DNA of 4,476 nt. Source: a virus (Duplodnaviria; Heunggongvirae; Uroviricota; Caudoviricetes). The translations under genes and the position numbers were made by a program. Under the pieces are notes generated by a model that was not told where the DNA came from, did not search any database, and worked only from the letters and a program-made list of their open reading frames with translations. Positions 1,721-4,476 of this stretch are shown here, piece after piece. The stretch spans positions 1-4,476 of the IMG/VR virus record IMGVR_UViG_2778261151_000012; one strand, 5' to 3'. How positions within the stretch are numbered: position 1 is the first letter of the stretch; each line of letters opens with the position of its first letter.

Positions 1721-1788
1721 ATTAGGCGACGCCTAATATAAATGTCAATAGGCTATGCCTAATGCGGCAAGGGTAGGTATTGCCTAAT
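1721..1788. promoter_or_regulatory. Divergent immunity operator region (OR-like): three 17-bp palindromic sites plus promoter elements for ydaS and racR
   Basis: Sites ATTAGGCgaCGCCTAAT (1721-1737), AATAGGCtatGCCTAAT (1747-1763) and GGTAGGTattGCCTAAT (1772-1788), centres 25-26 bp apart. Minus-strand -35 TTGACA (complement of 1743-1748) with a TAATAT-like -10 about 18 bp downstream, directed at ydaS. Confidence 0.6.
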
Positions 1789-2386: not shown

Positions 2387-2430
2387 ATTAGGCATAGCCT
2401 ATTGACAATCAATTAGGCATTACCTATAGT
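2387..2430 (+). promoter_or_regulatory. Strong sigma70-type promoter overlapped by operator-like sites (PL-like early-left promoter)
   Basis: -35 TTGACA (2402-2407), 17-bp spacer, -10 TATAGT (2425-2430). Operator-like ATTAGGCataGCCTATT (2387-2403) overlaps the -35 and TAGGCattACCTA (2414-2426) overlaps the spacer/-10. A related ACCTATTAGGT lies at 2364-2374. Confidence 0.6.
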
Positions 2431-2744: not shown

Positions 2745-2900
2745 ATGCAAAAAATCGACCTCGGCAACAACGAATCCCTGGTGTGCGGCGTGTTCCCCAA
2801 CCAGGATGGAACGTTCACTGCCATGACGTATACCAAAAGCAAAACATTTAAAACCGAAACTGGTGCGCGCCGATGGTTGGAGAAGCACACAGTAAGCTAA
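2745..2900 (+). CDS. ydaF: Small protein YdaF (DUF1391-like), 51 aa
   Basis: ATG 2745, 10 nt after the ydaG stop. Translation MQKIDLGNNESLVCGVFPNQDGTFTAMTYTKSKTFKTETGARRWLEKHTVS, stop TAA 2898-2900. Found by manual translation. Confidence 0.75.
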   Translation: MQKIDLGNNESLVCGVFPNQDGTFTAMTYTKSKTFKTETGARRWLEKHTVS

Positions 2901-3385
2901 CGATTAAAACGTCTACTCCTGCTGTTCCAGAATAACTTCATAAAATGGGAGTATTTTTCGGTGACGAGATAATAAGAACAGTTTGCGCTATCACTCTGAT
3001 GTTGAATGATGCCCTTCCGTTCTAATTTTTTCATAACCGGGTTACGGCAAGGAGAAGTGATAATAAGATTTCCTGTTTTAAGGAAATCTTTAAATACAGC
3101 GATTTCTTTCTCAGATAAACGAAGCAATACTCGTTGCTCTGGTAGTAATGAATAATGCTTTTGAATATGTGCTCGCAATCTTGAGAAGGAAATGGCGACC
3201 ACGAAAGAAAAGGCAAAAACGATAATCTGAAAGAGCCAAGGTATTTCAGTATAAGCATTGAATGCGACAGTAAACTCTTTCGGTATCAGCCAGAGAGTGA
3301 GACCAAAAATGATAATCGTATACATAAGTCTTTCGAGTGGCTCGTTAGCAAAAAGTTTCAACAATGGAGTAAATACATCCAACAT
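2897..3385 (-). CDS. sieB: Superinfection exclusion protein B (membrane protein), 162 aa
   Basis: Translation MLDVFTPLLKLFANEPLERLMYTIIIFGLTLWLIPKEF... with hydrophobic segments. Start chosen at ATG 3385..3383 to give 162 aa, matching recalled SieB. The containing ORF extends in-frame upstream to 3508. Confidence 0.85.
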   Translation of the reverse strand: MLDVFTPLLKLFANEPLERLMYTIIIFGLTLWLIPKEFTVAFNAYTEIPWLFQIIVFAFSFVVAISFSRLRAHIQKHYSLLPEQRVLLRLSEKEIAVFKDFLKTGNLIITSPCRNPVMKKLERKGIIQHQSDSANCSYYLVTEKYSHFMKLFWNSRSRRFNR

Positions 3386-3608
3386 ATCAATAACTCTCAA
3401 CTGTAAGGGTATTGAAATGTTAACACAAGCTCTCGCTGTAGGGGTATAGCCGAGACCACCGAAGCCCGGAGGTGGTGAAATAAAACCGGGCACAACACGA
3501 AGGCGCATTTCCGATATCCATAAAGAGTCGGTCTTGTCTGTTAAATTTAAATGGTGGGAGTGCGCCTCCGGTTGTAAATAACGACATTGCTGTGTGAAGT
3601 ACCAGTTG

Positions 3609-3648
3609 GCGGCATCGGTTTAATTGCTGGCTGATGTCCGCCCTTTTT
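3609..3648 (+). terminator. Terminator-like hairpin followed by T5 on the plus strand
   Basis: GGCGGCATC (3609-3617) pairs with GATGtCCGCC (3634-3643, one bulge) around a 16-nt loop, followed by CTTTTTAA. Confidence 0.3.
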
Positions 3649-3649
3649 A

Positions 3650-3804
3650 AAGTGAATTTTGTGATGCGGTGAATGCGGCTAAGCGCACGCGGCACAGTTA
3701 AAAGTCATGTTAGTCCTTATTGGTTTGGGTGGGAAAGCCGACTGTAATTGTTAACTGGTTAACGTCACCTGGAGGCACCAGGCACCGCATCACAAAATTC
3801 ACTT
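3650..3804. repeat. Perfect 22-bp inverted repeat flanking a 111-bp spacer
   Basis: AAGTGAATTTTGTGATGCGGTG (3650-3671) is the exact reverse complement of CACCGCATCACAAAATTCACTT (3783-3804). Spacer contains GTTAAC-tg-GTTAAC (3750-3763), hairpin CCTGG-aggca-CCAGG (3768-3782) and tandem AGGCACC x2 (3773-3786). Confidence 0.9.
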
Positions 3805-3931
3805 CGGTGATGAAAGGAAAGAGAAAATGTTGAATGTAGCTATTGAAAACCAGAACGGGTGGAATTATAGTGCACCTGCACCTCATAAAACGGGTGCCGG
3901 GATTAGCACCCCGAAAGTTACTCGAGCGCAT

Positions 3932-3954
3932 AACCGCGCTGAAGCGGTTTTTTT
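3932..3954 (+). terminator. Intrinsic-terminator-like hairpin plus T7 tract upstream of the Rha-family gene
   Basis: Stem AACCGC (3932-3937) / GCGGTT (3944-3949), 6-nt loop GCTGAA, run of seven T (3948-3954). Oriented for the plus strand. Confidence 0.35.
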
Positions 3955-4120
3955 ATGCGTAATGCACAGCCACATTCAAATTATGGTGAGGCGTGCGGGG
4001 CAGCCGCAAGGCTGGCCGGGTTCTCGAGTGACCGGTAGTGCTAACCCTGTGCGTCTCACCACCCATGAGATTAGCACCTCTGCTGGTGAGTTAATTAACT
4101 TATCACTTGAGGATGTCATT

Positions 4121-4476
4121 ATGGCTACTACCCTTTCTCACCCTGACGTAACCATCGAAAATGGTCGCGCCGTCACTACTTCTATTTCGATTGCTGAGTT
4201 TTTTGGCAAGCAGCATCACCATGTTGTTCAAAAAATAGAATCCCTCGAATGTTCTGAACTATTTTTAACCAGCAACTTTTCGCGGGTTAAATTCGAACAC
4301 CGCGGCAATTCTTATAACGCCTACCAAATCACCAAAAACGGCTTCGTTTTCCTGGTGATGGGCTTCACGGGCAAAAAAGCCGCCACATTCAAGGAAGCCT
4401 ACATTGCTGAGTTCGACCGCATGGAGGCCGAACTGCGCCAGAATAACACCCCACCTGCTGACAAGATGATTCCGGG
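4121..4476 (+). CDS. Phage regulatory protein Rha family (N-terminal Rha domain); 3' end beyond window
   Basis: ATG 4121 with GAGGA Shine-Dalgarno (4109-4113) 7 nt upstream. Translation MATTLSHPDVTIENGRAVTTSISIAEFFGKQHHHVVQKIESL...YQITKNGFVFLVMGFTGKKAATFKEAYIAEFDRMEAEL matches the Rha-domain signature. Frame is open to the window end. An in-frame upstream ATG at 3827 is an alternative start. Confidence 0.8.
   Translation, partial: MATTLSHPDVTIENGRAVTTSISIAEFFGKQHHHVVQKIESLECSELFLTSNFSRVKFEHRGNSYNAYQITKNGFVFLVMGFTGKKAATFKEAYIAEFDRMEAELRQNNTPPADKMIP

Follow-up and report, generated by a model that had tools for sequence, protein, structure and literature searches.

The window, as we call the whole 4,476-nt stretch of DNA analysed here, comprises the immunity and early-left region of a Rac-type lambdoid prophage. 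Matches to Pfam identified genes for DUF1376 (81–938), YdaT (951–1373), YdaS/Cro (1396–1692) and SieB (2897–3508) on the minus strand, and a gene for DUF1391 (2745–2900) on the plus strand. A plus-strand open reading frame for a 158-aa protein (1816–2292) occupies the position that racR has in the Rac prophage of E. coli K-12; its only Pfam match is a weak one to a helix-turn-helix domain. A strong pL-type early-left promoter, TTGACA-17-TATAGT, lies on the plus strand at 2402–2430 and matches the consensus at 11 of 12 positions, and a promoter scan placed a pR-type promoter on the minus strand at 1748–1719. Both promoters are flanked by 13-bp TAGGY-N3-RCCTA operator-like palindromes.

The segment from 3480 to 3804 is ~95% identical to the sieB-kilR leader (kilS-kilR) of K-12 Rac, and includes a plus-strand homologue of the small RNA KilS (3554–3648). 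The putative start of this RNA at 3554 was placed by alignment to K-12 KilS and lies behind an extended -10 element, TGtTAAATT, read in the sequence at 3539–3547. KilS is a 98-nt sRNA that was verified by northern blot, has an independent transcription start site at 1418502 and was classed as "5' UTR of kilR" (Bar et al., 2021, PMC8175672). In RefSeq, KilS of K-12 Rac is b4833, from 1418502 to 1418405, and its terminator ends 2 nt before the arm A described below. A terminator-like hairpin had been noted at this place in the first-pass annotation of the window. A terminator scan reported a terminator-like site at 3611–3638 with a T run to 3648, and the ~95% identity of the leader to kilS-kilR indicates that this hairpin is the KilS terminator (stem, 3611–3638; U run, 3644–3648). 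The 3' half of the KilS homologue resembles DicF, with an Rfam DicF (RF00039) score of 28.6 bits at 3593–3643; this score is below the gathering threshold of 48 bits, and the resemblance is confined to the terminator half. KilS of K-12 Rac scores 39.1 bits as DicF, and KilS and DicF look like alleles of one sRNA slot.

Beyond the KilS terminator lies a 22-bp inverted repeat, followed on the plus strand by a Shine-Dalgarno sequence, AGGAAAGAG (3815–3823), and an ATG at 3827 (together 3815–3829); both are read directly from the sequence and agree with the initial description of the locus. This ATG is the start that PGAP assigns to the Rha gene in near-identical genomes. The frame that it opens crosses the promoter, RNA and terminator of an isrK-like sRNA gene (3843–3954, plus strand; promoter 3843–3871 with 10/12 matches, RNA 3878–3954, terminator 3932–3954) and a C4 antisense RNA (3979–4066, plus strand; Rfam score 78.6 bits, threshold 45), and PGAP extends the Rha gene through these two RNA genes. 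The isrK-like RNA scores 68.5 bits in Rfam (threshold 50) and overlaps a c4-a1b1 target motif. The Rha-domain coding region (4121–4476, plus strand) runs off the window; counted from ATG 3827, the Phage_pRha domain occupies residues 117–200. The 98-codon frame that begins at ATG 3827 is uninterrupted in every one of the 11 variants examined, and residues 14–105 match Pfam Phage_ASH. Substitutions in this frame are flat by codon position (398/510/529), with 193 synonymous versus 710 non-synonymous codon differences; those in the Rha part from ATG 4121 have a protein-coding look (691/512/1389). ATG 4121 is the first start after which the substitutions look protein-coding. Whether ribosomes start at 3827 bears on what the stem described below could control.

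The inverted repeat as a conserved RNA helix

A repeat search of the window identified arm A (AAGTGAATTTTGTGATGCGGTG, 3650–3671) and arm B (CACCGCATCACAAAATTCACTT, 3783–3804), each 22 nt long, 100% complementary to one another and separated by a 111-nt spacer. We shuffled the window 200 times with dinucleotide composition preserved; at spacers of ≤300 nt, the longest perfect inverted repeat of a shuffle measured 8–13 nt and was never longer. The analytic expectation for a perfect 22-mer inverted repeat is ~8e-8. The exact match, together with these values, confirms the original claim that a perfect 22-bp repeat is beyond chance, and the distance of 10 nt from arm B to the ribosome-binding site was likewise as given there. 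RNA folding had been proposed as a check. When we folded the segment 3590–3830 with RNAfold, the predicted free energy was -87.7 kcal/mol (z = -4.6), and the 22-bp helix was present in the minimum free energy (MFE) and centroid structures alike. This helix, P1, has arm A as its 5' strand and arm B as its 3' strand, and closes a multi-hairpin, five-helix domain of ~155 nt that begins 2 nt past the KilS/DicF-type terminator.

Covariation, also proposed as a check, was assessed in an alignment of 27 variants from E. coli, E. albertii, Scandinavium, Citrobacter, Lelliottia, Buttiauxella and viral contigs. RNAalifold returned a 21-bp closing helix and four inner helices. Across the 27 variants P1 is kept at 21–22 bp while the sequence of the arms changes, and 12 of its 21 pairs have compensatory changes on both sides. 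Overall, 97.5% of P1 cells are paired, a percentage that is inflated because the long-stem sequences were chosen by helix score; the compensatory changes between lineages are unaffected by that choice. Sliding the P1 partner by 1–3 columns reduced pairing to 33–44%, and the values observed for the whole structure were reached in none of 500 shuffles. The pairing also depends on the strand: 553 of 567 cells pair on the plus strand, as compared with 523 of 567 on the minus strand. The stem has 38 G-U cells, and 30 stem cells pair only as plus-strand RNA; read as DNA or from the opposite strand, these 30 would be A-C mismatches. Based on the covariation and the strand bias of the G-U pairs, we conclude that P1 is an RNA helix under RNA-level selection on the plus strand. 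The first-pass annotation had made an RNA duplex conditional on both arms being on one transcript, and these data support such a duplex on plus-strand RNA.

Variation in the arms among E. coli copies is consistent in type with the wider alignment. C-to-U transitions are commonest, and these turn G-C into G-U on the plus strand; several variants carry full compensatory double changes (U-A to C-G, A-U to G-C, U-A to G-C), a few have single mismatches, and a 1-nt bulge (A, G or C) is frequent at a fixed place in arm B. We also scanned one genome per species, as well as viral contigs, with a conserved 20-nt core. Copies were found in Citrobacter, Lelliottia, Scandinavium and Buttiauxella, at one further genome locus (L208) and in viral contigs. 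The arms of these copies have wholly different sequences, yet form 19–22 bp. It had been reasoned at the outset that a meaningful repeat should persist in related prophages that keep the flanking genes, and it is indeed conserved in related prophages.

Homologous loci and probable processing by RNase III

A 163-nt query (3646–3808) matched 4624 of 5426 complete E. coli genomes (85%), where the median copy number was 2 and the highest 9. It also matched 39 phage records, for example Rac-SA53, mEp460, Stx2a-converting phages and Shigella Stx phages. The ~155-nt element is unannotated in every E. coli match among the matches listed. An 801-nt query gave some match in 4679 of the 5426 genomes, most of them sharing the block 3606–3801. 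In an alignment with the dicF-dicB spacer of the K-12 Qin prophage (three sequences, 84% mean column identity), the arms and the flanks of the domain are nearly unchanged. Other prophage lineages are homologous up to the 3' end of arm B but not beyond it. The gene that follows is dicB in Qin, kilR in Rac and a 94-aa open reading frame in another type; in the window it is the module of isrK-like sRNA, C4 and Rha. K-12 Rac kilS-kilR is the orthologous locus, and its arms lie on the minus strand at about 1418403–1418382 and 1418270–1418248; past arm B, it has kilR where the window has the Rha module.

The stem in Qin has the same position after the terminator of a DicF-type sRNA, lies in the same kind of repressor-controlled early-left operon and encloses the same interior domain. 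It differs from that of the window in the closing helix, which is a perfect Watson-Crick 22-mer in the window and 21 bp including three G-U pairs in K-12 Qin; in the upstream sRNA, which is a KilS allele in the window and DicF in Qin; and in what follows, which is the Ash/isrK/C4/Rha module in the window and dicB in Qin. The window has the other attributes of a dicBF-type site, namely a terminator (3611–3648) with arm A directly after it at 3650, a pL-type promoter, RacR/YdaS/YdaT-type immunity genes and, in P1, a continuous duplex of about two helical turns (at least 20 bp), as in the dicBF-type RNase III stem. Judged by sequence, the element is a paralogue of the Qin dicF-dicB RNase III site and an orthologue of the kilR leader, and we regard it as a known kind of device in a new mosaic context. 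Neither PMC8175672 nor the other literature searched mentions a stem-enclosed domain between KilS and kilR.

The Qin duplex is a documented substrate of RNase III. According to two secondary descriptions, RNase III acts on the full-length dicBF mRNA to give a 72-nt DicF, the 3' end of which is 19 nt beyond that of the terminated 53-nt form (PMC5069750, PMC9438474, both citing Faubladier, Cam & Bouche 1990), and a review counts dicA-dicF-dicB among the intergenic RNase III substrates (PMC2777011). With dicF annotated at 1649382–1649434, the 72-nt end falls at position 1954 of our Qin locus (L001). On the strength of these two descriptions and the current dicF annotation, the end is thus at position 13 of Qin arm A (L001 1942–1963), in the middle of the duplex, where an RNase III cut would be expected. 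Table S1 of Gordon 2017 lists position 1649470, "dicF-dicB", as a known ("Yes") rnc-dependent site, with 0 reads in both wild-type replicates and 26 in the rnc mutant; this position is inside the enclosed domain of Qin (arms 1649441–62 and 1649573–94). The sole Rac entry of that table, 1418510 ("kilR-sieB", unflagged), is ~107 nt upstream of Rac arm A, and so lends weak support to cleavage of the Rac copy. Read-through transcripts, ydfABC-dicFB-ydfD, have been described in K-12 (PMC10448788). A 2023 study stresses a different, upstream RNase III site, at the 5' end of a 190-nt DicF precursor. The initial suggestion that the repeat forms an RNase III duplex is thus supported by homology. Cleavage is known for the Qin paralogue from the literature, and by homology the same is expected of the prophage in the window.

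We consider it probable that P1 on plus-strand transcripts is cut by RNase III, which would part the sRNA from the downstream message and reset the 5' end and stability of that message. Transcription of the plus strand would start at the promoter of the KilS homologue (~3554) or at the repressor-controlled pL-type promoter (2402–2430), and read-through of the KilS-type terminator at 3648 would allow the arms to fold into P1. RNase III would recognise the two-turn helix and cut both strands, the 5' strand near 3662|3663, as predicted by homology with the 3' end of the 72-nt DicF, and the 3' strand near 3793|3794. Three products are expected: a KilS/DicF-type RNA that continues for ~14 nt beyond its U run, the excised domain (~131 nt), and a downstream message with a new, monophosphorylated 5' end ~20 nt ahead of the Shine-Dalgarno sequence at 3815. 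Cleavage of P1 would in this way separate the sRNA from the message of the next, potentially harmful, gene, which is the antirepressor-like Ash/isrK/C4/Rha module in the window, kilR in Rac and dicB in Qin. A further plus-strand hairpin, UCAC-UUCG-GUGA (3798–3809), was read from the sequence. It includes the final 7 nt of arm B and would require P1 to be cut or open; after the cut, these nucleotides would refold into it near the new 5' end, where the hairpin could stabilise the processed message. One variant (L073) retains the stem of this hairpin and has UCAG as its loop.

RNase III sites are known in the early polycistronic RNAs of phages, including the lambda N leader, sib and the T7 early region. 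These sites consist of a two-turn duplex in an early transcript, and their cleavage by host RNase III separates cistrons and alters the stability or translation of the neighbouring message. The lambda N leader, like the element in the window, belongs to a pL-type operon. The lambda and T7 sites are not known to share sequence homology with the window, where the duplex closes a large, conserved multi-helix domain and not a simple hairpin. The genes whose leader carries this stem are ones that E. coli has to hold silent. KilR and DicB block cell division, and read-through into kilR has been reported to follow repression of the termination factor NusG by OxyS (PMC10798246). The cassette of sRNA, terminator and RNase III stem that is shared by Rac, Qin and the Rha prophage links three loci that had been studied separately (DicF, KilS and the silencing of kilR), and RNase III is a possible layer in the control of kilR and antirepressor expression. 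These findings do not overturn current understanding.

The enclosed domain and its kinship with STnc100

Inside P1, all four helices are formed by the plus strand. P2 (3675–3690) is a hairpin of 5 bp with a bulged A and a 5-nt loop; it is 100% paired in the alignment, and its shape was also seen by eye in canonical copies of STnc100. P3 (3691–3693 with 3737–3739) surrounds a hypervariable central segment (the whole spanning 3691–3739), and two of its three pairs are compensatory. P4 (3740–3766) is a hairpin with a near-invariant loop, TGTTAACTG, and in the window it is chimeric, with a Rac-type 5' strand, a Qin-type 3' strand and two mismatches. P5 (3768–3782) is the hairpin CCUGG-AGGCA-CCAGG, the U-A pair of which is UA in 19 sequences and GC in 8, being G-C in other genera. 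The first-pass annotation had listed symmetric elements in the spacer, and both GTTAAC-tg-GTTAAC and CCTGG-aggca-CCAGG (3768–3782) are present; what it missed is that these elements are helices of a conserved STnc100-like domain. Its description of the region as one with no convincing gene was correct for proteins only, as the region includes the KilS/DicF-type sRNA homologue and this conserved structured RNA domain.

The Rfam STnc100 model (RF02076) matched the window at 3655–3796 over model positions 21–154 of 206, with a score of 34.1 bits (E = 7.2e-5) that is below the gathering threshold of 47 bits. Other copies scored 34.4 bits (Qin, E = 1.3e-4), 28 bits (Rac) and 43 bits (P7, E = 8e-7). 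The consensus helices of STnc100 (the closing helix, the 5' hairpin and the 3' CCNGG hairpin) are present in the window domain. A closing helix ending in GGUG/CACC, a P2 with a bulged A, and a 3' CCNGG-AGGCA-CCNGG hairpin are common to STnc100/PasD and the window, and it is on these shared helices, the Rfam scores and the shared 20-nt core that the family relationship rests. Canonical STnc100 genes, by contrast, stand alone, carry promoter-like and terminator sequences and have a closing helix of 6–10 bp, whereas the copy in the window lies inside an operon, has a 22-bp helix and scores below the gathering threshold. In a few canonical copies inspected by eye, the closing helix is immediately preceded by -10 and -35 elements and followed by an intrinsic terminator. 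Canonical copies score 50–132 bits and are often in arrays beside tRNA genes, and one has been reported downstream of stx2 (PMC12370729). A consensus scan of the region in the window detected no promoter ahead of arm A or on the minus strand, the best candidate by eye being a "-10" with 3/6 matches, and we rejected an independent promoter for the domain. A terminator scan of the window reported nothing after arm B, where CGGUGAUGAAAGG follows position 3804, and we likewise rejected the arms as an intrinsic terminator or attenuator. The window domain does not qualify as a stand-alone STnc100 gene because it is without a promoter and terminator (model positions 155–206) of its own. It is a distant relative of STnc100, and not a member by either Rfam threshold or gene organisation.

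The length of the closing helix across the collected copies is bimodal, at 5–10 bp or 18–23 bp. A terminator within ~110 nt downstream was found for none of 90 long-stem copies and for 104 of 204 short-stem copies, in a heuristic test of copies that are distinct but phylogenetically non-independent. In copies embedded in operons, the two-turn helix has been added. In P7, the same interior lies between tRNA-Thr and terB in the ban operon and is closed by a stem of only 9 bp, indicating that the domain must have a role that does not need RNase III. In the literature searched we found no statement that connects KilS/kilR, DicF/dicB and STnc100, none on the bimodal length of the stem and none on the gap in annotation. 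A tentative and, in our estimation, unlikely generalisation is that STnc100/PasD and their relatives make up a large, mostly unannotated superfamily in two forms, one a stand-alone gene, and the other embedded in operons, its helix lengthened to 21–22 bp for release by RNase III from the leaders of toxic early genes (kilR, dicB, small membrane peptides, antirepressors). The freed RNA, or the domain in cis, would then have a function of its own, as is suggested by the near-invariant loops.

These same observations bear on a reading in which the purpose of the long helix is sRNA biogenesis: RNase III would excise the STnc100-like domain as a stable trans-acting RNA, and the helix would take the place of a promoter and terminator. 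The match of the interior to STnc100, the promoter-like and terminator sequences of the canonical copies and the mutual exclusion of long stems and terminators are all consistent with this reading, as are the loops TGTTAACTG and AGGCA, which are near-invariant across genera, and the description of PasD and STnc100 as target-binding sRNAs (bioRxiv 10.64898/2026.05.13.724894). However, the coverage of the Qin domain, 0 reads in wild-type cells and 26 in the rnc mutant, is the reverse of that expected if excision gave a stable RNA, with the caveat that the library may under-represent small RNAs. Moreover, the P7 domain lies between cistrons with only its 9-bp stem, and we found no northern or RIL-seq signal for the spacer in the literature searched. 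We therefore consider biogenesis of a trans-acting sRNA decidedly unlikely as the reason for the helix, and favour separation of the sRNA from the downstream message.

Occlusion of the ribosome-binding site and DNA-level readings

The first-pass annotation had also suggested that the duplex could gate translation. The uncut helix, together with pairing between the U run and the Shine-Dalgarno sequence, would hide the ribosome-binding site, and RNase III would free it, as in the lambda N leader. The MFE structure of the window does pair CUUUUUA (3643–3649) with UGAAAGG (3811–3817), and in simulations the dicB Shine-Dalgarno sequence of Qin rose from 0.27 to 0.80 unpaired after the cut. In addition, a start codon follows arm B by 15–30 nt in all four E. 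coli downstream types examined, and each of the four is preceded by a Shine-Dalgarno-like sequence, as judged by eye. However, the simulated effect in the window was small (0.65 to 0.80 unpaired), that in the kilR type was reversed (0.81 to 0.40), and that in the fourth type was absent (0.35 to 0.32). The ribosome-binding site is, moreover, outside the conserved module. Since the simulated occlusion is inconsistent among the four lineages, the element does not conserve pairing of the ribosome-binding site, and we rejected occlusion as a conserved mechanism. The RNase III part of the original suggestion thus stands by homology, and its gating part is not supported; we regard a translational gate as very unlikely, and retain cleavage of P1 as the preferred reading.

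The repeat had alternatively been considered as a cruciform, a protein-binding site or a cis-antisense pair, and the data disfavour all three. For an element acting as DNA, whether by extruding a cruciform, binding a dimeric protein or serving in recombination that leaves mosaic joints, it can be said that homology between lineages is lost at two places, the 3' end of arm B and the vicinity of the terminator, and that a perfect palindrome could in principle extrude or bind protein. However, the 30 stem cells that pair only as plus-strand RNA, the 1-nt bulge (A, G or C) that is common at a fixed place in arm B, the complete divergence of arm sequences between genera with a length of 21–22 bp kept, and an interior made up of covarying hairpins all argue against such a role, and homologous recombination within the conserved block explains the mosaic joints more simply. 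A DNA-level function is accordingly extremely improbable. A MITE with 22-bp terminal inverted repeats, which the ~155 bp between inverted repeats and the several copies per genome (median 2, up to 9) might bring to mind, or a cis-antisense small RNA pair is almost certainly wrong, given that the flanks (GCCCTTTTTA and CGGTGATGAA) have no target-site duplication, that every copy examined is syntenic after a KilS/DicF-type terminator in an early-left prophage operon, that relatives are without long terminal repeats, and that no promoter-like site was found on the minus strand in or near the element.

We also noted 70% complementarity between the KilS 5' region (3546–3565) and the P2 region (3683–3702), a long-range duplex that we weighed as a connection with the second known RNase III site, which lies upstream of DicF, and with position 1418510 of Gordon 2017. 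Comparison by hand showed that only 6–9 bp of it are common to Rac and Qin, and we attribute it to chance.

The untranslated leader and the KilS/DicF slot

Five 13-bp palindromes of the form TAGGY-N3-RCCTA, at window positions 1722-1786 and 2389-2425, border the divergent pR-type (1748-1719, minus strand) and pL-type (2402-2430, plus strand) promoters. They probably serve as operators for a RacR-like repressor, whose gene is at 1816-2292. The sieB gene (2897-3508, minus strand) is antisense to the pL-type transcript and, therefore, ~900 nt of the plus strand, from the DUF1391 gene to ATG 3827, are untranslated. For the same leader in K-12, it has been reported that read-through into kilR follows when OxyS represses the termination factor NusG (PMC10798246).

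The leader contains a homologue of KilS, the K-12 Rac sRNA (b4833), at 3554-3648, preceded by an extended -10 element, TGtTAAATT (3539-3547). Its terminator half has an Rfam DicF score of 28.6 bits in the window and 39.1 bits in K-12 Rac, and KilS and DicF therefore appear to be alleles of a single sRNA slot, with the same stem-enclosed domain after each. Further alleles of this slot were observed in viral contigs, e.g. L004 and L034. Published data for an RNase III mutant include a kilR-sieB entry with rnc-dependent coverage at K-12 position 1418510, with 0 reads in wild-type cells versus 41 in the rnc mutant, that is not marked as 'known' (Gordon et al., 2017, Table S1). This position corresponds to approximately window 3546 and precedes the KilS start by 8 nt. 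The signal could represent either a shoulder of the stem site or a second RNase III site resembling the one upstream of DicF.

Mosaic joints and the frame from ATG 3827

The inner hairpin P4 (3740-3766) is chimeric in the window copy, and its helix has two mismatches because a Rac-type 5' strand (GACTG) meets a Qin-type 3' strand (AACGTC). There seems to be a recombination joint inside the invariant P4 loop, TTGTTAACTGG. A second inter-lineage joint, at ~3801-3804, coincides with the 3' end of arm B of the closing helix. The conserved RNA block serves as a mosaic linker joining prophage modules.

Over 3827-4120, the frame that begins at the Rha start called by PGAP (ATG 3827) crosses an isrK-like promoter, an isrK-like RNA with its terminator, and the gene for the C4 RNA. 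None of the 11 variants examined interrupts this frame, which matches Pfam Phage_ASH with 62 bits; substitutions across 3827-4120 are evenly spread over the codon positions, in contrast to the Rha part. Either this leader is translated without amino-acid constraint, or RNA genes are what the protein family Phage_ASH was built on.

Long-stem and STnc100-type copies at other loci

Hydrophobic peptides of 36-38 aa (e.g. MSRNGIRSLVIVLAICLVAWSATIIKILHVTGVLNG) follow the long-stem domain in three loci that do not belong to the Qin/Rac-type lineages of E. coli: L208 (from 6410), from the genome scan, and the viral contigs L265 (from 9945) and L302 (from 3222, minus strand). Together with kilR and dicB, these peptides suggest that the long-stem form associates with early genes that are small and toxic.

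Tandem arrays of canonical STnc100-type domains, with three to five copies each, are present in L219 (3717-4821, within ~10 nt of tRNA genes), L253 (2265-3380, also near tRNA genes), L307 (4349-5513) and L197 (110-1688). Phage P7 (L364) carries a copy at 1501-1616, between tRNA-Thr and terB in the ban operon, which is controlled by C1.
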